Positions 7,840 to 30,746 of a stretch of 64,000 nt of DNA are shown piece after piece. Numbering within the stretch: the first letter of the stretch is position 1; every line of letters begins with the position of its first letter. The position numbers and the translations under genes were made by a program. The notes beneath the pieces were generated by a model. That model ran no database searches. It was not told the DNA's origin and saw only the letters and a program-made list of their open reading frames with translations. The stretch is from Promethearchaeia archaeon (lineage in GTDB: Archaea; Asgardarchaeota; Lokiarchaeia; Sigyniarchaeales; SOKP01), in NCBI GenBank assembly GCA_029856145.1, contig JAHQWK010000030.1:1-64000 (forward strand). The letters run 5' to 3'.

Positions 7840-8253
7840 TTTAATTGAAAACTTTTAAAAATAAGTCGAATGAAAAAATGTGCGAAACCATATTAGAAAA
7901 ATTAAAACTTAGAAAAGCGGAATGGTTATTAAAATTTAATTCTATACCTAGAGAAATCATTATCATAAATTCTCACATTTTTGTTTAAATTTTTTCATGA
8001 AAATATGCAAAAATGATCAATTCTCCCTTTCTTTCTTAATGCTTATCGAAATTTCTTGTTCTTAAACTTTCATTAAGATAAAATTTGTTTTGAATCTATA
8101 ATCATAATCTAAAATTTTGCTTACATAGATAAATAGTAAGAAATAAAAATATTAAAAAGAATAAAATCTAAAAGATATAATATTAATTAATGTTATTAAA
8201 TTAAGATTCTACAATCTTGTATAAAAAAATTAGAGGTTGATGTGATAAGAGGA

Positions 8254-10194
8254 ATGGAAAATAAAACTCATCGGATTGGATACTATGCTTGTCAATGAGG
8301 CGTAAATATTAAGACTAAAGTAGGTTGCGATGAATTAGTGGAATATGTGAAAAATCTTGGAGATGAAATCATTATATCAAAGAAAAATTCATTTCTTTGA
8401 ACTGATAATGCTCAAAACGAAATAATTGAGGATATTAACGAAAAGAATTTAAACAGAATTGTGGCATCAGCTTGAACACCGCGCACACACGAGGTGATCT
8501 ACCGAGGGACCATCGCTAAGACAGATTTAAATCCTTATTACTTTCAAATGGTTAATGTACGGGAACATTGTTCTTGGTGTACAGATAGTAAAGAAGAAGC
8601 TACAGAAAAGGCAAAAATCTTAGTGAAAAGTGGTATTGAGAGAGCAAAACTATTGGAGCCAGTTCCTATTAAAACTGTCCCTGTCACTAAAGCTACTTTA
8701 GTTGTAGGAGGTGGAATTGGCGGTATGAATGCAGCTTTGGATCTTGCTAACCAAGGTATTAAAGTCTATCTTGTCGAACAAAAAACTACGATAGGGGGGA
8801 GAATGTCTCAACTTGACAGAACTTTTCCTACAGATGACTGTGCGATATGAATTTGCGGGCCTGTTATGCTCAATATCAATAGAAATGAGAATATTGAATT
8901 ATTAAGCTTTAGCGAAGTAAAGAAAATTGAAGGATATGTGGGTAATTATACTGTTACCATTGAAAAGAAACCACGTTATACAACAGATGAATGTAATGGG
9001 TGTGGAGCTTGTGCTGAAGTGTGTCCAGTTTACACAACAAATTATTTCGACGAAAATTTAGGGGCACGGAGAGCAATTGACATATCATTTGATCAAGCAG
9101 TACCGTTTTTATATGATATAGACAGGAATGCTTGTATAGAATGTTTCTCGTGTGTAGACGCTTGTGAATTAGATGCTATTGATTTTAGTCAAATACCAAA
9201 AGAAGTCAATATTGAAGTTGGGACAGTAATAATAGCAACAGGTTGGGATATTCATGAACCTTATGGTGAATATGGATATGGTGAAATCGAGAATGTTATA
9301 ACTCAAGTTCAACTAGAACGGATTTTAGCTCCAAATGGACCACTTGAAGGCCATGTGCACCGAATTTCAGATGATAAAGAGCCTAAAGAAATTGTTTTTA
9401 TACAGTGCGTGGGAAGTCGAGAAACAGAAAGAACCTATTGTAGTGGTGTATGTTGTATGCTTGCATTAAAAAATGGGCGATTATTACTGGAAGAATTTCC
9501 CGATGCGAACATAACAATCTGTTATATTGATATAAGAACTCCTGAAAAAGGATTTGAAGAATACTATGAACGAGCTAAAGATGCAGGTATTAGAATGATT
9601 CGTGGAAAAGTTGGTGAAATCTCTGAAGATCCTGAAACTAAAAATGTGAAAGTTCGCGTATATTCATCTCTCACAGATAAGATTGTAAAAATTGATGCTG
9701 ATTTAGTTGTTTTATCTACAGCAGCACTCCCTTCAAAAGGTACTGAACAGATTGTAAAAGTATTAAATCTTGATACTAATATGTATGGCTTTCTTACAGA
9801 ATCACATTTCGGTTTAATGCCACAAGAAACAAAGGAAAAAGGAATTTTTATTGCTGGATTTGCTCAGGGACCGAAAAATATTTCTTATTCAGTTTCTCAA
9901 GCTAGAGCTGCGGCTAGTAAAGTTGCTGAGTTAACATCACCAGGAGAAATCGATATAGAACTTATTACTGCGGAGGTGGACAGTGAATTCTGCATTTCTT
10001 GTAGACGATGCGAAAAAGAATGTCCTAAAAATGCCATTAGGATTGAAAAGGATATCGGTGCGTTTATTGATGAAATAAATTGTGACGGATGCGGTATTTG
10101 TGCTACGTGTTGTCCTACTCAAGCAATTGATATCAGATATTATCGAGATCATCAATTATTTGCTGAAATTGATGGTCTTTTAGGAGGTGGTTAA
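8254..10194 (+). CDS. hdrA: Selenocysteine-containing heterodisulfide reductase subunit A (646 aa, 4 Sec: U15, U49, U74, U199)
   Basis: One frame joins ATG 8254 with ORFs 8494-8850 and 8866-10194. In-frame TGA at 8296 (CQUG vs CHCG), 8398 (FLUT vs YTCS), 8473 (SAUTPRTHE vs ASCTPRTHE) and 8848 (DDCAIUI vs NDCAICI), all aligned to Cys of the HdrA paralogs in this window. GGGIGG FAD motif and ferredoxin motifs are intact. Confidence 0.93.
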
Positions 10195-10200
10195 ACAAAC

Positions 10201-10662
10201 ATGAATAATACTTATAATATGATCGTGTTTGCTTGCTTAAAATGAGGATATAGCGCGGCTGATTTAGCTGGGGTTTCCCGATTAAAGTATACTCCTGCGG
10301 TAAAAATTATCAAAGTAAGATGTACCGGTAGAGTTGACATTAAGCACATTTTGTATAGCATTCGTGCGGGAGCTGATGGTGTTATGATTGTCGGTTGAAG
10401 ACCTAATGAATGTCAATTTAAAAACGGTAATTTCACAGCCGAAAGGCATGTTGATTTAGCAAATAGAATCTTAGAATCTAGAGGTTTCGGTAGTCAAAGA
10501 ATAAATATGTATTGGTTAAGTGGAGGAGATGCTGGGAAATTTGTCGAATCTGTCGAGGATGCTTACGAAAAGGTAAAAAAAGCTGGACCAAGTCCACTGA
10601 ACTTAGAACCCGAAGAAATGAAAGTTGATACAAAACAAGTTATAACTACCCCTACAGAATGA
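10201..10662 (+). CDS. mvhD: Selenocysteine-containing MvhD/VhuD [2Fe-2S] subunit (153 aa, 2 Sec: U15, U66)
   Basis: Missed by the ORF track. Translation MNNTYNMIVFACLKUGYSAADLAGVSRLKYTP...VRCTGRVD...GADGVMIVGURPNECQF. TGA 10243 and 10396 align to Cys in CNWCSY and GCHIGDC of the paralogs at 17748 and 30312. Confidence 0.93.
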
Positions 10663-10715
10663 TTCTTATAAACAAATTCTAGTTATAAGAAGACTAACCT
10701 TGCAAGGGAAGGGGT
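10648..10715 (+). ncRNA. Eukaryote-like (Lokiarchaeota-type) SECIS element
   Basis: ATGA (10659-62), stem TTCTTATAA (10663-71), apical region ACAAATTCTAG with unpaired AAA, stem TTATAAGAA (10683-91), GA (10692-93). Lower helix ACCCCT (10648-53) pairs with AGGGGT (10710-15). Lies directly 3' of two UGA-containing genes. Confidence 0.85.
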
Positions 10716-10780
10716 TTTTAAATAGTATTCAATTAAAAATAAAAATTTTTATAGAAAATGTAATCCAAAAGGATGAAAAT

Positions 10781-12277
10781 ATGGTTCAAATTTCAAGAAC
10801 TATCAATTTCAATGGAATATCGCCAAGAAATTTAATGGATGCCACCTATAAAGCAGTCGAAAACTTTCAAATTAGGGCATTTTTCGAAGCAAAAGATGAA
10901 ATTTTGAAAACTGGAAAATATTCTGAAGAAGAATTTTATGAAATATTAGATACTATGATCGATGCTGAAACAGAGCGTAAATTAGTGTTAGAGGCATTAA
11001 TAGGTAAAGAACCGTTATTTTTAGAGGAAATTTCAAAAACTCTAAAAGATTTTCCACCAGAAAACGTCATTCGTGATATTATTTATCTTAAAGAACAAGG
11101 ATATATTGAAGAACATATTGAAATAAAAACTAAAACAGTCATTAAGAAAATAAAGGGAGAAGAAAAAGAAGTCGAGGAAAAAGAATATTTCTATAGGTAT
11201 CAAGTTAAAGAGATACCTGATGGTTTTATTGAACATTTTTTTGAAACCGTTTCTATTGTGTTTGATTTTAAAGTATGCTGTCAATGTGGTTGGTGCTCAT
11301 CAATTTGCCCTGTTAATGCAATTACAGTCACCGCAGACACTTTAGAGATTGATGATGAAACTTGTATAAAATGTGGCTTATGTTATTCTGTTTGTCCGAG
11401 ATCTTTTTCAATTGAACAAGCAGGTAAAAGTATAAATAAACTTGATAAATCTTTAAAATTTTCAGAAAAAATTAATAGTTATATTAATACATATTCTGCC
11501 ACCACCACTAAGGATGAAATTAAAAAAGTTCGACAAGATGGTGGGATTGTAACTTCTCTACTCGAATATTTACTCAAAAATAAATTAGTTGACGCCATTG
11601 TAGCAGTACAACATTCGAAGGACTTATGGAAACCAGAACCAGTAATAGTAGAAGACATTAAAGATTTGTACAAAACTAGTGGAACTAAATACGCAAATGC
11701 ATCAACATTAAGTATAATCGATGAAACAAAAAAGTACGATAATATTGCGATTGTAGGTGTCCCGTGTATGATGAACGCTTTAGAAAAAGGAAATTTATTT
11801 CCAAGTAGACTGCCTTTTTTCAAGAATATCAAATATAGAATAGGACTTTTCTGCATGGAATCTTTTCCTTACGAGGGCGTCCTTAACTTAATTAAAGAAC
11901 AATTTCAAACAGATTTTAAAAAAGTAACAAAAATGGATATAAGTGGAGGTAAATTCATTATATACTTAGATTCTGGTGAGGACTTAAGAGTACCCTTAAA
12001 GGAAGTTAAATCTTATGCTCGGTACAATTGTCATTTTTGCGAGGATCTAACATGCGATTTTGCAGATGTCAGTATTGGCTCAATTGGTTCACCCAGTGGG
12101 TGGTCTTCGGTAATAACGAGAACTAAATTAGGCGATAAACTTTTTAAGGACGCTATTAAGAAAGGATTAATTGAATCTAAAAGTTTAAAGGATGTTAAAC
12201 CTGGACAACCCTTACTTGAACGGATAGCTGGAATAAAAAGAAAAAATTGTAAACCAATCAAATTGGAAAAGGAGTAA
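10781..12277 (+). CDS. FrhB-family F420-binding subunit with N-terminal helical/wHTH extension and 2x[4Fe-4S]
   Basis: CCQCGWCSSICP, CIKCGLCYSVCP, QDGGIVT, GVPC, IGLFCMESF and CHFCEDLT motifs. ATG 10781 is preferred over TTG 10700, which lies inside the SECIS. Confidence 0.88.
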   Translation: MVQISRTINFNGISPRNLMDATYKAVENFQIRAFFEAKDEILKTGKYSEEEFYEILDTMIDAETERKLVLEALIGKEPLFLEEISKTLKDFPPENVIRDIIYLKEQGYIEEHIEIKTKTVIKKIKGEEKEVEEKEYFYRYQVKEIPDGFIEHFFETVSIVFDFKVCCQCGWCSSICPVNAITVTADTLEIDDETCIKCGLCYSVCPRSFSIEQAGKSINKLDKSLKFSEKINSYINTYSATTTKDEIKKVRQDGGIVTSLLEYLLKNKLVDAIVAVQHSKDLWKPEPVIVEDIKDLYKTSGTKYANASTLSIIDETKKYDNIAIVGVPCMMNALEKGNLFPSRLPFFKNIKYRIGLFCMESFPYEGVLNLIKEQFQTDFKKVTKMDISGGKFIIYLDSGEDLRVPLKEVKSYARYNCHFCEDLTCDFADVSIGSIGSPSGWSSVITRTKLGDKLFKDAIKKGLIESKSLKDVKPGQPLLERIAGIKRKNCKPIKLEKE

Positions 12278-12293
12278 TGTAAAAGTTATTATT

Positions 12294-13406
12294 ATGAGTA
12301 TAAAAACTTTTCAAGATTTAATTAAGGAAGTTCACGAAAAAGGAATCTGCCAAGAATGTGGAGGATGCACTTCTTTCTGTTCAGCAGCATTCGAAACTGT
12401 TATAGGCTTCAAAAAACCTAATTCTCCTCCTGAATACATAAACAAAGATGCATGCCTTGAGTGCGGTATATGTTATTACTTATGCCCTCAAACACATATC
12501 TTAGATGATGACCTAAATAATACTTATCAATTCACTGATTTTACATCAATGCCTTACGGATTTGCTGAAGATGTCTATTCTTGTCAGACTATAGATGAAG
12601 AATTTCTTAAACATGGGACAGATGGAGGTGTGGTAAATACACTTTTAAATTTCTTATTAGAAAATAAAATTATCGATGGAGCAATAGTCTCTAAAGTTGA
12701 GAGTCCATTTTCTCGAGAAGCCATGTTAGCAGAGAATAAAGGTGACCTAATTAAAGCATCGGGTACAATTTTGAATGTATCTCCACAAGTAGATGAAATA
12801 CAAAGGTTTAGCACTTATACACGCTCAATTCCTCAATTAAGTCATTATAAATTTAAAAAGTTAGCAATTGTGGGAACACCTTGTCAAATTTATACTATTA
12901 GATGTATGCAAACTTTAGGTGTTACCCCTTCGGAACATATTGAGATTTGTTTTGGTTTATTCTGTTATCATAATTTTCTATTTGAAAAATCTCAAATCGA
13001 GAAATTTGAAAAAGAGTTTAAGGTAAAATTTGAAGATATAAAAAAAATAAACATTAAGGAAGATTTAATTCTAAAGGTAGAGGATAAAAACTCAAAAGAA
13101 AAGATAATTCATATTCCTTTTAATAAATTAGTTAATTATATACGCCCAGCTTGCCATTCCTGTCTTGATTTTACTAATGTTTATTCAGATATTTCGTTTG
13201 GAGGGCTTGGATCTCCAGACAAATTTACCACTGTAATTCCTCGTACTGAAAAAGGTAAACAATTATTCCAAAAAGCATTAGATAAAAATATAATTAAGAA
13301 TCTAAAACTTGATGAAAATGTAAAAAGAAATATGAAAACCCTAATAACAAAGTTTTCTAAATCAAAAATTGAACGAAGAAATGAATTCATGAAAAACTTA
13401 AAATAA
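12294..13406 (+). CDS. FrhB-family F420-binding subunit
   Basis: CQECGGC, CLECGICYYLCP, TDGGVV, GTPCQ, GLFC and CHSCLDF motifs. Confidence 0.88.
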   Translation: MSIKTFQDLIKEVHEKGICQECGGCTSFCSAAFETVIGFKKPNSPPEYINKDACLECGICYYLCPQTHILDDDLNNTYQFTDFTSMPYGFAEDVYSCQTIDEEFLKHGTDGGVVNTLLNFLLENKIIDGAIVSKVESPFSREAMLAENKGDLIKASGTILNVSPQVDEIQRFSTYTRSIPQLSHYKFKKLAIVGTPCQIYTIRCMQTLGVTPSEHIEICFGLFCYHNFLFEKSQIEKFEKEFKVKFEDIKKINIKEDLILKVEDKNSKEKIIHIPFNKLVNYIRPACHSCLDFTNVYSDISFGGLGSPDKFTTVIPRTEKGKQLFQKALDKNIIKNLKLDENVKRNMKTLITKFSKSKIERRNEFMKNLK

Positions 13407-13410
13407 GGAA

Positions 13411-14688
13411 GTGAATTTTATAGTAGAAATTGAAAGATCTAAAAGGGCAAAATTGGAAGCAGATGAATTTGATTCGTACTTAAGAAAGATATATGAACCA
13501 AATTTAATTGATTTATTGAAAAAATGCTATCAATGCGCCCGTTGCTCAGGTGTATGTCAAATCAGTAAAGTTCAAAAATTTACACCTAGTAGAATCATTC
13601 AAATGATATTAGAAGGTTTTGAAGATGAGATAATTAATAGTCAGGTATTATGGGATTGTTTAATGTGCAATAGTTGCTTACAACATTGCCCTAAAGATAT
13701 TAATTTTGCTGATATTGTCAGAATGGCTAGATATAAAATGCGAACAAAAGATATCCAAAATCCTGATCGTTCTATTGCTCATAAAGGTATTTATCCTCTA
13801 ATGTCAGAACTTATGATTCAAAAAAATATTAAAATTGAAAGACCTTTAGATTGGATTCCAAAAGGCTGTAAAATTTCAAATAAAGGAGATATTTTATATT
13901 ATGTAGGATGTTTACCTTTCTTTAATTATGAATTTCAAGACTCAAATTCCATAGCAGAAAGCACTTTAAAGATTATTTGTCAATTAGAAAAAGATCCAGT
14001 AGTTATTCTTAAAGATGAAATATGTTGTGGTCACGATTTATATTGGGGTCAAGCAAAATTCGAAGTTTTTATCGAATTAGCAAAAAAAAATATAAATATC
14101 TTTGAAAAAGCAGGAATCTCAAAAATAGTTACTGCATGTGCTGAATGTTATAGAACTTTTAAAATTGATTACCCGAAGCTTTTTGAAGATTTTAATGAAA
14201 AATTTGAAGTTAAACACATAATTGAATATATATATGATAAGTGGAAGCAGGGAAAAGTCCAATTTAAAAATCCTAATGAATCTAGTGATGTTATTCCTTT
14301 CACTTATCATGACCCTTGTAGATTAAGTAGATTTTTACCAAAGGATAATAAAATTATTGAGAAAGTCCGAGAAATCTTCAAACATTTGAAGACAATAGGA
14401 TATAATTTTAATGAAATGGAACATAATAAAGAAAATTCCTATTGTTGTGGAGTAAATTCTTGGATGAATTGTAATGAAAAGTCTAAAGCTTTACGATATA
14501 AGCGTCTTTTAGAAGCTAAAGCTGCTGGAACAAAAATGATTACAGCATGCCCAAAATGTCGAATGCACTTAAATTGTCTAAAAAAAGACTATGAAGACTT
14601 CTCCTCTATTGAAATCTTAGATTTTTCAGAATTCTTAGTGGATTTTATAAAAATAATAGAACCTAATCAAACAGTTGAGGAGAAGTAA
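13411..14688 (+). CDS. HdrD/GlpC-like Fe-S oxidoreductase (2x[4Fe-4S] plus two CCG domains)
   Basis: CYQCARCSGVC, CLMCNSCLQHCP, YVGC...CCG...CAEC and HDPC...CCG...CPKC motifs. Confidence 0.88.
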   Translation: MNFIVEIERSKRAKLEADEFDSYLRKIYEPNLIDLLKKCYQCARCSGVCQISKVQKFTPSRIIQMILEGFEDEIINSQVLWDCLMCNSCLQHCPKDINFADIVRMARYKMRTKDIQNPDRSIAHKGIYPLMSELMIQKNIKIERPLDWIPKGCKISNKGDILYYVGCLPFFNYEFQDSNSIAESTLKIICQLEKDPVVILKDEICCGHDLYWGQAKFEVFIELAKKNINIFEKAGISKIVTACAECYRTFKIDYPKLFEDFNEKFEVKHIIEYIYDKWKQGKVQFKNPNESSDVIPFTYHDPCRLSRFLPKDNKIIEKVREIFKHLKTIGYNFNEMEHNKENSYCCGVNSWMNCNEKSKALRYKRLLEAKAAGTKMITACPKCRMHLNCLKKDYEDFSSIEILDFSEFLVDFIKIIEPNQTVEEK

Positions 14689-17600
14689 TGGAGAAAGTCG
14701 GCGCTGTCTTAGTTATTGGTGGCGGAATTGCAGGGATCCAAACTTCTATAGATTTAGCAGATTCAGGTTATAAAGTTTATCTAGCAGAATCGACAACCAG
14801 TATAGGTGGGGTTATGTCTCAATTAGATAAGACATTTCCAACTAATGACTGTGCAATATGTATACTTGCCCCAAAATTGGTACAAACTGGTCGACATGAA
14901 AATATCGATATTTTAATTAATTCATCAATTGAAAAAATTGAAGGTGTTCCTGGTAATTTTAATCTTGATTTAACTCAAAGAACGCTTCTTTTGGATCATA
15001 ATAAATGTACAGGGTGCGGGTTATGTGCTCAACATTGTCCTATAGAGGCTATAGATTTTTTTAATGAGAAGCTTTCTAATATTGCAGCAATATCTGTAAA
15101 ATTTCCTCAAGCAGTTCCATTAGTGTTCTCAATTAATAAAGAAAAATGTATAGGTTGCGGTATTTGTAAAGGAATTTGTAAAGCAAAAGCTATAGATTAC
15201 GAACTTCAAAATGAATTAATTAACCTCAATGTAGGAGCTGTAGTATTAGCAATTGGGTTTGATGAATACGATCCTACACCTTTAACGCAATTTGGTTACG
15301 GTAAGCATTTAAATGTGATTACTAGTATTGAATTTGAACGTATACTCAGTGCTAGTGGACCACACTCAGGTTTAATAATTCGCCCTTCTGATGGAATTAT
15401 CCCTAGAAAAATTGCCTTTTTACATTGTATAGGGTCAAGGGATAGAAAACATAGAATTGAATACTGCTCTTCTGTGTGTTGTATGTATACTACAAAGGAA
15501 GCAGTAATAGCAAAAGAGCATATGAATATTATAGAACCAACTATTTTTACAATGGATGTCAGAGCATATGGTAAAGATTTTGATAAATATATTGAACGAG
15601 CGAAGAATGAGTATGGAGTAAGATATATCAGACGTAGAATATCTTCTATTAAGGAAATTCCGGACTCTAAAGATTTAAAGGTTTATTATGAAACAGGAAA
15701 TGGAAAAATTATTGAAGAAATTTTTAATCTAGTCGTCCTTTCTGTAGGAATGCAACCTAATCAACAAGCAAAAGAACTAGCACAGAAATTAAATATCCAG
15801 TTAAATGAATATGGGTTTTGTAAAACTGGAACTTTTAACCCAGTAGAAACTTCAAGACCAGGGATTTATGTTTGTGGGTCTTTCGCAACACCTAAAGATA
15901 TTCCAGAAACTGTTATTGAAGCTAGTGCTGCTGCTGGATGTGTAAATGTTCTTTTATCAGAAGCAAGAAACAAATTAGTCTCTAAGAAAGAACTTCCCGA
16001 GGAAATAGATGTAAGTGATCAACCACCGCGAATAGGAGTATTTATATGTCATTGCGGGATAAATATTGGTGGGGTTGTTGATGTTCCTGATGTAGTTGAA
16101 TATGTGAAAACTTTACCTGATGTAGTTTATGCAGAACATAATTTATATACCTGTTCAGCAGATACTCAGACTATTATTAAAGAAAAAATCGAAGAAAACC
16201 AACTCAATAGAGTTATCGTTGCCTCATGTACTCCAAGAACACATGAACCTTTATTTCAAGCAACAATCAGGGAGGTTGGTTTAAATAAATATCTTTTTGA
16301 AATGGTTAATATTCGAGATCAATGTTCATGGGTTCATATGCATGAACCTGAAAGAGCAACCGCAAAATCAAAAGATTTATTGCGTATGTCAGTGGCGAAG
16401 GCTAGTCAATTAATCCCGTTACAGGAACAAGAAATCACTGTAATAAATAAAGGGCTAATTATAGGCGGGGGTGTATCTGGAATGTCAGCAGCATTAAATT
16501 TAGCTTCTCAAGGGTATGAAGTTTTCTTAATTGAAAAGGAAGAAGCTCTAGGTGGGCTTGCTAAAAATATTTATCGAACCCTCGAAAATGATGATACCCA
16601 GGAATATCTTGAAAACCTAATTAAAAATGTTGAAGATAATCAACTAATTCAAGTATATAAAAATGCTCAAATCAATTCAATATCAGGATATATAGGAAAT
16701 TTTTCCACAAATGTAAGCTACGGAAATAATAGCAAAAGTGTTGATCTAGAACATGGGATAATCATTGTAGCTACTGGCGCAAAAGAATATCAACCAAAAG
16801 AATATAGTTTCGGGCAAGATCAAAGAATTATATCTCAAACTGAATTTGAAAAAGATCTTTTTACTACGGATAAAATAAAAGGATTGAAATCAGTTGTTAT
16901 GATTCAATGCGTTGGATCTAGAAATGAAGATCACTCCTACTGTAGCAGAATCTGCTGTTCAGAAGCCATTAAAAATGCGTTGAAAGCAAAAGAAATCAAT
17001 CCTAATATAGAAATAGTGATTCTATATCGTGATATTCGAACATATGGTTTTAAAGAAAAATACTATAACTTAGCACGAGATAAAAAGATTATTTTCATTA
17101 GATTTGATGAAACTAAACTTCCTGAATTAAATATTAAAAATAAACAGTTAATAATAACAGTAAACAATCCAGATTTAGGAGAACTTGAAATAAATCCAGA
17201 TTTAATTGTGTTAAGTACGGGGCTTGTAGCACCCATAAAAGAAAACGAAGAGTTAGCAAAAATGTTAAAAGTTCCACTTAATGAGGATAAATTCTTTTTA
17301 GAAGCTCATGTTAAATTGAGACCAATTGATTTTGCAACAGACGGTATATATTTATGTGGGTGTGCACATTCGCCTAAAGATCTTCGAGAATCAATTGCCC
17401 AATCTAATGGAGCTGCTGGTCAAGCAGTTAAAATCTTAAGTGCTAAAAAACTTGTAACATCTGGGCTTGTAGCTGTCGTAATAGAGGAAAATTGCATTGG
17501 CTGTGGAAGCTGTATGGAAGTCTGTCAATTTAATGCTATAGAATTAATAGAGGAAGAAAGAACATTTGAAGATTTCACAATGACTATAAAGAAATCCCAC

Positions 17601-17729
17601 ATAAATCCAGCGCTTTGTAAAGGTTGTGGCACATGTGGTGCTCAATGCCCTAATTCAACAATAGTTATTAAACATTTTGGTTTTGAGCAAATTCACGCTA
17701 TGATTTCTGCTCTTTTAGTCCAAAGTTAA
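14688..17729 (+). CDS. hdrA: Large double-FAD HdrA-family protein (Cys form)
   Basis: Two GGG.xG FAD motifs, QLDKTFPTNDC, internal CHCG/CS/CTPRTHE/RDQCSW domain and ferredoxin motifs. Confidence 0.9.
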   Translation: MEKVGAVLVIGGGIAGIQTSIDLADSGYKVYLAESTTSIGGVMSQLDKTFPTNDCAICILAPKLVQTGRHENIDILINSSIEKIEGVPGNFNLDLTQRTLLLDHNKCTGCGLCAQHCPIEAIDFFNEKLSNIAAISVKFPQAVPLVFSINKEKCIGCGICKGICKAKAIDYELQNELINLNVGAVVLAIGFDEYDPTPLTQFGYGKHLNVITSIEFERILSASGPHSGLIIRPSDGIIPRKIAFLHCIGSRDRKHRIEYCSSVCCMYTTKEAVIAKEHMNIIEPTIFTMDVRAYGKDFDKYIERAKNEYGVRYIRRRISSIKEIPDSKDLKVYYETGNGKIIEEIFNLVVLSVGMQPNQQAKELAQKLNIQLNEYGFCKTGTFNPVETSRPGIYVCGSFATPKDIPETVIEASAAAGCVNVLLSEARNKLVSKKELPEEIDVSDQPPRIGVFICHCGINIGGVVDVPDVVEYVKTLPDVVYAEHNLYTCSADTQTIIKEKIEENQLNRVIVASCTPRTHEPLFQATIREVGLNKYLFEMVNIRDQCSWVHMHEPERATAKSKDLLRMSVAKASQLIPLQEQEITVINKGLIIGGGVSGMSAALNLASQGYEVFLIEKEEALGGLAKNIYRTLENDDTQEYLENLIKNVEDNQLIQVYKNAQINSISGYIGNFSTNVSYGNNSKSVDLEHGIIIVATGAKEYQPKEYSFGQDQRIISQTEFEKDLFTTDKIKGLKSVVMIQCVGSRNEDHSYCSRICCSEAIKNALKAKEINPNIEIVILYRDIRTYGFKEKYYNLARDKKIIFIRFDETKLPELNIKNKQLIITVNNPDLGELEINPDLIVLSTGLVAPIKENEELAKMLKVPLNEDKFFLEAHVKLRPIDFATDGIYLCGCAHSPKDLRESIAQSNGAAGQAVKILSAKKLVTSGLVAVVIEENCIGCGSCMEVCQFNAIELIEEERTFEDFTMTIKKSHINPALCKGCGTCGAQCPNSTIVIKHFGFEQIHAMISALLVQS

Positions 17730-17747
17730 ATTATAAGGTATTAATTT

Positions 17748-18179
17748 ATGTCTAAGTCAAAAAAGAAAGTAAATAAAAAGGATTTTCACCCTAATATATT
17801 GTGTTTTTGTTGTAATTGGTGTAGTTATGCTGGGGCAGATTTAGCTGGCGTATCTCGTTTTCAATACCCTCCCACTATTAGAATAGTAAGAGTAATGTGC
17901 TCTGGTAGAGTAGACCCGGCTTTTATTTTAGAAGCATTTAGAGATGGGATTGACGGAGTCATTGTGACAGGCTGTCACATTGGTGACTGTCATTATCTGA
18001 AAGGAAATGAGTTTGCAAGAGATAGGTTTGAAAATTTTCAGGAAGTTCTAAAAATATTCAATCTTGAAAAAAGATTTAGACTTGAATGGGTTAGTGCGTC
18101 TGAAGGAAAAAGATTTGCTGAAGTTATTACGGAATTTACAAATGAAATTAAAAAACTAGGTCCATTACAAGCAATTTAA
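17748..18179 (+). CDS. mvhD: MvhD [2Fe-2S] subunit (Cys form)
   Basis: CCNWCSYAGADLAG, VMCSGRVD, GCHIGDCHY and WVSASEG motifs. Confidence 0.93.
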   Translation: MSKSKKKVNKKDFHPNILCFCCNWCSYAGADLAGVSRFQYPPTIRIVRVMCSGRVDPAFILEAFRDGIDGVIVTGCHIGDCHYLKGNEFARDRFENFQEVLKIFNLEKRFRLEWVSASEGKRFAEVITEFTNEIKKLGPLQAI

Positions 18180-30295: not shown

Positions 30296-30311
30296 TTCTT
30301 AGGTGATAATC

Positions 30312-30746
30312 ATGTCGAAATCAAATAAGAAAGCAAAACAAGAAGGATTTGAACCCAACATTTTGGTTTTTTGTTGTAATTGGTGTAGCTATGCTGGAGC
30401 AGATTTAGCAGGGGTTTCACGATTTCAATATCCCCCCAATATCAGGATAATAAGGGTAATGTGTTCTGGACGAGTAGATCCTTCATTTGTGTTAAAAGCT
30501 TTAAAGAACGGTGTTGATGGAGTCCTTGTAAGTGGATGCCATATAGGCGATTGTCATTATATTACAGGAAATGAATATACACAGGAAAGATTTGAAAGAC
30601 TACATTCAATTTTAATAAAACAATTGGGAGTAGATCCTAAACGAGTACGACTAGAATGGGTAAGTGCGTCTGAAGGAAAGAGATTTGCTGAAGTAATAAC
30701 AGAATTTACTAATCAAATTAAAGAATTAGGGCCATTAAGACCTTAG
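30312..30746 (+). CDS. mvhD: MvhD [2Fe-2S] subunit (Cys form)
   Basis: CCNWCSYAGADLAG and GCHIGDCHY motifs. SD AGGTGA precedes ATG 30312. Confidence 0.93.
   Translation: MSKSNKKAKQEGFEPNILVFCCNWCSYAGADLAGVSRFQYPPNIRIIRVMCSGRVDPSFVLKALKNGVDGVLVSGCHIGDCHYITGNEYTQERFERLHSILIKQLGVDPKRVRLEWVSASEGKRFAEVITEFTNQIKELGPLRP

Follow-up and report, generated by a model that had tools for sequence, protein, structure and literature searches.

Tandem HdrA–VhuD selenoproteins in described archaea

The closest described counterparts of the locus analysed here are the tandem HdrA–VhuD selenoproteins of Lokiarchaeota, for which Mariotti 2016 (PMC4989117) describes a VhuD of ~150 amino acids with two selenocysteines (Sec, U) alongside HdrA proteins with multiple Sec. 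In that account, the two genes stand in tandem, their junctions being very short or overlapping, and are served by one lokiSECIS element (AUGA, 9-bp stem, 11-nt loop) found only after vhuD, while hdrA stop codons are never UGA and UGA stops close to the SECIS escape recoding. Huang 2024 (PMC11227280) reported 1439 selenoprotein genes from 227 Sec-using Asgard genomes, with HdrA and FrhD/VhuD being the most numerous, always adjacent and sharing one SECIS between them, and named the pair hdrA-frhD.

Our window, meaning the whole 64,000-nucleotide stretch of DNA that was analysed, derives from contig JAHQWK010000030.1 of a Promethearchaeia archaeon, and the gene of interest occupies positions 10201–10662 on the forward strand. 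The hdrA-vhuD pair in this window agrees with the Loki tandem on each point described in Mariotti 2016, namely the shared strand, the very short gap, a non-UGA hdrA stop and an A-rich 11-nt loop SECIS after vhuD, and nothing essential was found to differ. The presence of several HdrA–VhuD pairs in the genome is likewise as described for the Loki system in Huang 2024 and Mariotti 2016. All main features of the locus have thus already been published in these two studies and are ordinary for this lineage.

More distant relatives share parts of this arrangement. Methanococcal VhuD (PDB chain 9sfi_K) resembles the window VhuD in carrying Sec at the same two positions, within a CxxU motif near the N-terminus and within G-U-[KR]-P-N-E-C, and its gene also lies beside that of a Sec-HdrA. 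The methanococcal genes, however, rely on an archaeal-type SECIS in the 3'UTR and encode a single-Sec HdrA, whereas the window has a lokiSECIS and an hdrA with four in-frame TGA codons; moreover, methanococcal VhuD docks the [NiFeSe] Vhu hydrogenase or Fdh, while the window vhuD has no hydrogenase gene nearby. In the Cys-type MvhD of Methanothermococcus and Methanothermobacter (5odc_D and 9sw2_D), the type to which both MvhD paralogs in the window belong, Cys stands at residues 16 and 67 where the window VhuD has Sec, and the MvhD residues His68 and Asp71 are conservatively replaced in the window by R67 and E70. BamF, from the class II benzoyl-CoA reductase of Geobacter metallireducens, differs further in being bacterial, with a bacterial SECIS, and in being >100 aa longer with an extra domain and a wHTH.

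Considering all the evidence below, we regard it as very probable that the gene encodes the VhuD/MvhD-type [2Fe-2S] adaptor of an HdrA complex that performs flavin-based electron bifurcation in an Asgard archaeon of the Loki type (Promethearchaeota), with its in-frame UGA codons recoded by means of a lokiSECIS.

An intact vhuD gene directly follows hdrA

The vhuD/mvhD coding sequence (10201–10662, +) comprises 153 residues and a terminal TGA (10660–10662) when internal TGA is read as U, and it constitutes a genuine, intact gene whose product, the small VhuD/MvhD iron-sulfur adaptor, feeds electrons to heterodisulfide reductase. Its product matched Pfam family PF02662 (FlpD/MvhD) with an E value of 4.4e-42 and 143.4 bits against a gathering cut-off of 22.3, with profile positions 2–123 (of 123) covering residues 8–129 and spanning both internal TGA codons. 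The top NCBIfam match was the VhuD model NF045873, yet at 154.8 bits this stayed below the cut-off of 215; it is an NCBI 'exception' model that we took to be tuned to methanogen sequences, and U was scored as C. Among PDB chains the top match was the VhuD chain 9sfi_K (134 residues, E 4.5e-39). ORF calling with translation table 11 reduced the frame to a 51-aa fragment.

Upstream on the same strand, hdrA extends over 8242–10194 (+), from a likely start at GTG 8242 or ATG 8254 to a TAA stop codon (10192–10194). Its product scored 652 bits against the HdrA chain 9sfi_A, and its frame contains four TGA codons (8296–8298, 8398–8400, 8473–8475 and 8848–8850). As read from the sequence, only the 6-nt spacer acaaac lies between the hdrA stop and the vhuD ATG at 10201, and a Shine-Dalgarno-like GGAGGTG (10183–10189, +) sits within the final hdrA codons, 11 nt 5' of that ATG, an arrangement that suggests translational coupling of hdrA and vhuD on one mRNA.

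An ortholog scan using one genome per species recovered 54 loci, nearly all labelled as Promethearchaeota or as another Asgard group, from which 48 full-length vhuD sequences, all from MAGs and 66–97% identical to the window vhuD, were assembled as the ortholog set. In all 45 loci that included enough upstream DNA, a Sec-encoding hdrA lay 3–9 nt 5' of vhuD, the gap reading as 22–23 nt in two of these where the tblastn match starts inside vhuD. The hdrA stop codon was TAA or TAG in all 45 and TGA in none, and the hdrA frame usually contained four TGA codons. One of the loci stands on a 4-kb contig (CAZYWQ010000329.1) that bears the label 'Candidatus Sumerlaeota bacterium'. The ortholog there is 74% identical and retains the SECIS as well as both TGA codons, and the contig most likely belongs to an Asgard archaeon and was misassigned during binning.

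The in-frame TGA codons fall on selenocysteine and cysteine positions

Both internal TGA codons of vhuD, codon 15 (10243–10245, +; U15 in FACLKU) and codon 66 (10396–10398, +; U66 in VGURPNEC), align to non-standard (X) residues of 9sfi_K. That chain has exactly two such residues, which we take to be the Sec residues of Methanococcus maripaludis VhuD in the Hdr-Vhu-Fwd structure. In HdrA, U203 aligns to the X residue of 9sfi_A, which we equate with Sec197 of M. maripaludis HdrA, a residue described in the structure paper as bonded to a cysteine, and U19, U53 and U78 align to conserved Cys. The five conserved Cys positions of the family are occupied in the vhuD product by C12, U15, C41, U66 and C71, which align to invariant Cys columns of the window paralogs and of chains 5odc_D, 9sw2_D and 7bkb_F. 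The two paralogs within the window (17748–18179 and 30303–30746) have Cys at the U15 and U66 columns. TGA is kept at both codons in 48 of 48 full-length orthologs with an otherwise conserved frame, which, at 66–97% identity, is more than chance would account for.

These results bear out most of the original prediction, which had placed a two-Sec MvhD/VhuD directly after a Sec-hdrA, 6 nt beyond its stop, with TGA in CLKU and GURPNEC and Cys at both positions in the two window paralogs. The PF02662 match, the translation and the 9sfi alignments agree with each of these statements. Its further claim, that selenium substitutes in both electron-entry subunits of Hdr, is likewise upheld by the coincidence of HdrA U203 with the X residue of 9sfi_A and of VhuD U15 and U66 with those of 9sfi_K. 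The comparison that it proposed, with Methanococcus VhuD and Asgard homologs, thus placed both TGA codons on Sec positions, and the accumulating disablements that it named as contrary evidence were found in none of the 48 orthologs.

It could be argued that vhuD is a pseudogene, an MvhD paralog in decay that the nearby Cys-type copies have made redundant and that carries two nonsense mutations. The gene is broken by standard ORF calling, and the genome holds 11 FlpD-family genes of which seven are Cys-type. We nonetheless give this explanation next to no credence: identical TGA pairs persist in orthologs down to 66% identity with no further disruption, the TGA codons fall precisely on Cys columns, and a covarying SECIS lies 3' of vhuD. 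Four of the 11 FlpD-family genes have two TGA codons each, and all four stand behind a Sec-hdrA, the three besides the window vhuD being directly 3' of an hdrA that bears the canonical DDCxIU selenocysteine. Both internal TGA codons of vhuD are almost certainly read as selenocysteine.

A covarying lokiSECIS overlaps the end of vhuD

A lokiSECIS element was located at 10648–10715 (+), overlapping the vhuD gene end, and was found in the same place in 49 of the 49 ortholog loci that contain this end. Its core reads ATGA TTCTTATAA ACAAATTCTAG TTATAAGAA GA (10659–10693), in which the AUGA (10659–10662) is followed by a perfect 9-bp helix II (10663–10671 with 10683–10691), an apical loop of 11 nt (10672–10682) and the core GA (10692–10693), a geometry of AUGA, 9-bp stem, 11-nt loop and GA kept in 49/49 loci. 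The element is closed by helix I, which pairs ACCCCT (10648–10653) with AGGGGT (10710–10715), and the stretch from the core GA to the 3' strand of helix I holds a mini-hairpin of three pairs with a GCAA or GCGA loop (10698–10708). The only Cys-type locus among those fetched (L055) has no lokiSECIS.

Covariation, computed on an alignment of 50 sequences, supports this structure. Helix II was paired in 95.1% of cases, with both-side changes in six of its nine pairs, and helix I also covaries, with C-G replaced by U-A or U-G and U-A by C-G. Across the whole structure the covariation score was 0.206, compared with 0.147 in shuffled alignments, and double-change cells numbered 41 against 16.7 (0/500 shuffles attained the observed value in either case); sliding the partner columns lowered pairing from 90% to 49–64%. 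When the single sequence 10640–10720 was folded, the minimum-free-energy structure contained all three helices, at a z-score of −1.29 relative to shuffles that is not significant. Scanning the whole genome for the motif on its own (ATGA, 9 bp, loop, GA/AA) returned eight matches compared with 3–11 in shuffled genomes; the motif alone is therefore unspecific, and the evidence for the element consists of its position and its covariation. Searches against Rfam gave no family at gathering score in the window and only noise at E ≤ 10 on 10560–10800, and lokiSECIS appears not to be covered by any of the curated SECIS families of Rfam 15.

The UGA portion of the AUGA core is the vhuD stop codon, and it is in frame as the stop in 46 of the 48 orthologs, the remaining two having UAA or UAG just 5' of the AUGA. 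Reading through the UGA would append >20 unconserved residues in four of those 46. Given these unconserved tails and the alternative stops immediately before the AUGA in two orthologs, the VhuD protein ends at this UGA, which is probably too near the element for recoding and would serve as a stop. In Mariotti 2016, such use of the AUGA core as a stop is reported only for VhuU.1, whereas it is the rule in the orthologous group of the window vhuD. The single eukaryote-like lokiSECIS would, under the explanation that we favour, recode UGA 15 and 66 of vhuD together with the four UGA codons of hdrA.

A second SECIS-shaped motif inside hdrA, ATGA TTCGGGGAA ... TTCTCTGAA GA, was considered and rejected, as it has no compensatory changes and encodes the peptide MIRGKVGEISE. 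This hdrA-internal motif (ATGA, 9 nt, 11 nt, 9 nt, GA; 8–9 pairs) occurs in 14 ortholog loci, including L016:2046, L021:2395, L023:2395, L024:2395, L037–L039:2396, L045–L047:2396, L049:2396 and L050:2397, and is absent from the hdrA of the window. It is probably a coding coincidence, a by-product of the conserved peptide.

Elsewhere in the genome, further lokiSECIS-like elements were observed. All five lokiSECIS found in this genome have a small hairpin beginning 4 nt after the core GA/AA (window 10694–10715, C25:80650, C2(-):223467, C2(-):139937 and C9:170922), and although the hairpin sequences differ (CCTTGCAAGG, ATGGTTGCACCAT, CCCGAGGCCCGGG, AGGATTGCTTCCT and CCTTGTGAAGG), the shape is kept. 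At least four of these elements also possess a closing lower helix and so form a three-way junction. This mini-hairpin after the core GA/AA is not mentioned in the part of the Mariotti 2016 text available to us. At C9:170437–170913 (+), equivalent to L077:538–1014, a 158-aa ORF with two adjacent in-frame TGA codons (VVHADUUADVM) is followed 9 nt after its stop by a lokiSECIS-like element; this ORF matched no Pfam family (best E 0.06).

Selenocysteine machinery is encoded and the genetic code is standard for TGA

The genome from which the window derives (3.55 Mb, 30% GC) encodes the components of a Sec pathway. A cluster within 6.5 kb on contig C8 (11546–18019) contains SepSecS (C8:11546–12703, −; 374 bits), the adjoining tRNA-Sec (C8:12919–13007, −; 62 bits against an Rfam cut-off of 47) and, ~4 kb from these two, an EFSec-like GTPase (C8:17129–18019, +) that scored 230.6 bits, slightly short of the 242 set as cut-off for bacterial selB. 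A PSTK-like kinase was represented in the same genome by a KTI12/PSTK-family match of 115 bits. The segment C9:622849–624880 holds a tandem of two selD genes with a single in-frame TGA apiece, in agreement with the two or more selD reported for many Loki and Thor genomes (Huang 2024, PMC11227280).

TGA is reassigned in some uncultured lineages, and a genome-wide or context-dependent code change, by which TGA would be decoded as Trp, Gly or Cys, could also account for in-frame TGA codons. In this genome, however, of the 1428 open frames that reach 300 codons or more, 201 (~14%) terminate in TGA, so that the genetic code is not reassigned. In addition, in-frame TGA is missing from most of the window's long ORFs, the in-frame TGA codons of hdrA and vhuD align solely to Cys or to residues given as X (Sec) in the 9sfi chains, and the Sec pathway described above includes tRNA-Sec. 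Taken together, these observations make a code change extremely improbable, and we retain decoding as selenocysteine.

Transcription and genomic neighbourhood

A T5 run (10715–10719, +) stands directly 3' of the SECIS and is kept in most orthologs, making it a possible archaeal transcription stop that would close the hdrA-vhuD unit. A TATA-like TTTTTATAG is found 5' of the next ATG (10781), and together with the T5 run after the SECIS this suggests that hdrA-vhuD forms its own transcription unit. It is most likely that vhuD is co-transcribed with the four-Sec hdrA just 5' of it, so that both would share one mRNA. A scan for sigma-70 promoters and intrinsic terminators was set aside as not informative, the host being an archaeon.

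Beyond the SECIS and T-run, the region 10781–18179 contains two FrhB-like genes, the first of which is extended N-terminally by ~160 aa and includes a 2x[4Fe-4S] domain. The region further encodes an HdrD-like CCG protein, a double HdrA of 1013 aa and the first of the Cys-type MvhD paralogs. No hydrogenase gene was detected among the downstream genes near hdrA-vhuD, and the sole match to PF00374 ([NiFe] large subunit) in the genome lies on contig C13 rather than on the hdrA-vhuD contig. 'VhuD' is accordingly a name given by orthology. In methanogens, the FrhB homologues FdhB and ElpB feed HdrA via MvhD; by analogy, and given that 10781–18179 contains no hydrogenase gene, an FrhB-type protein may be the electron donor to Hdr in this archaeon.

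Selenocysteine 15 and 66 probably have different roles

The window VhuD aligns without gaps to chain 9sw2_D, in which U15 corresponds to Cys16, U66 to Cys67, R67 to His68 and E70 to Asp71, and the numbering of this chain matches the Methanothermobacter marburgensis MvhD residues named in the published account (Cys16, His68 and Asp71). There, Cys16 is described as an additional conserved cysteine that lies between the [2Fe-2S] centre and FAD (PMC13580544). A preprint on class II benzoyl-CoA reductase describes a cysteine close to the [2Fe-2S] cluster of methanogen MvhD that does not ligate it and that is Sec19 in BamF, where it may form a selenenylsulfide (bioRxiv 10.64898/2026.04.10.717634); BamF Sec19 would then correspond to the Cys16/U15 position. 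In the window HdrA, C200 and U203 occupy the positions of Cys202 and Cys205.

On this basis, the statement in the original prediction that two of the four [2Fe-2S] ligands are Sec does not hold. Five conserved Cys positions compete for four ligand sites and U15 aligns with Cys16, described as the extra one; at most one Sec, U66, is therefore expected to ligate the cluster. A cluster with two selenolate ligands, in which Sec15 and Sec66 both bind the [2Fe-2S] centre, does find some agreement in the family, where both columns are invariant Cys/Sec and both residues lie at core beta-strand ends near the cluster. Set against the surplus of conserved Cys, the placement of Cys16 between cluster and FAD (PMC13580544) and the non-ligand cysteine of the benzoyl-CoA reductase preprint, we consider such a doubly selenolate-ligated cluster unlikely.

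The assignment that we prefer gives the two residues separate functions. U66 is the probable [2Fe-2S] ligand, assigned by elimination from the alignment and the published statements, and would bind the cluster along with C12, C41 and C71. U15, at the conserved fifth-cysteine position, is most likely not a ligand and instead part of a Cys/Sec group on the path from cluster to flavin, which would place it between the cluster and the bifurcating FAD and near the C200/U203 pair of HdrA.

A more far-reaching combined reading, which we advance tentatively as it is possible but rather doubtful, makes the non-ligand Sec15 one end of a selenol/thiol relay in which VhuD U15 acts with HdrA C200/U203 to bridge the [2Fe-2S] cluster and the bifurcating FAD. 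The gap between cluster and FAD would otherwise be too long for electron transfer, and selenium would occur at the relay positions in both Asgard archaea and Methanococcales. Separately, the SECIS would adopt a three-way junction, formed by helix I and helix II together with the conserved mini-hairpin that starts 4 nt beyond the core GA. Within the same reading, the C-terminal tail ITTPxE would be under RNA-pairing and protein constraint at once, since the UGA of the SECIS core doubles as the stop codon.

Implications for annotation and biology

For annotation, hdrA and vhuD are real genes, and their six UGA codons call for transl_except entries so that neither gene is left as fragments. The locus adds one further instance of the system on which the argument for descent of the eukaryotic SECIS from an archaeal VhuD SECIS has been built, a system in which one element has been proposed to serve for the recoding of six UGA codons across ~2.4 kb of a two-gene mRNA. 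As a refinement of the published picture, one VhuD Sec and the canonical HdrA Sec fall on residues singled out by recent cryo-EM papers, on the path from [2Fe-2S] to FAD. The placement of Sec on that path is relevant to the loading of the bifurcating flavin.
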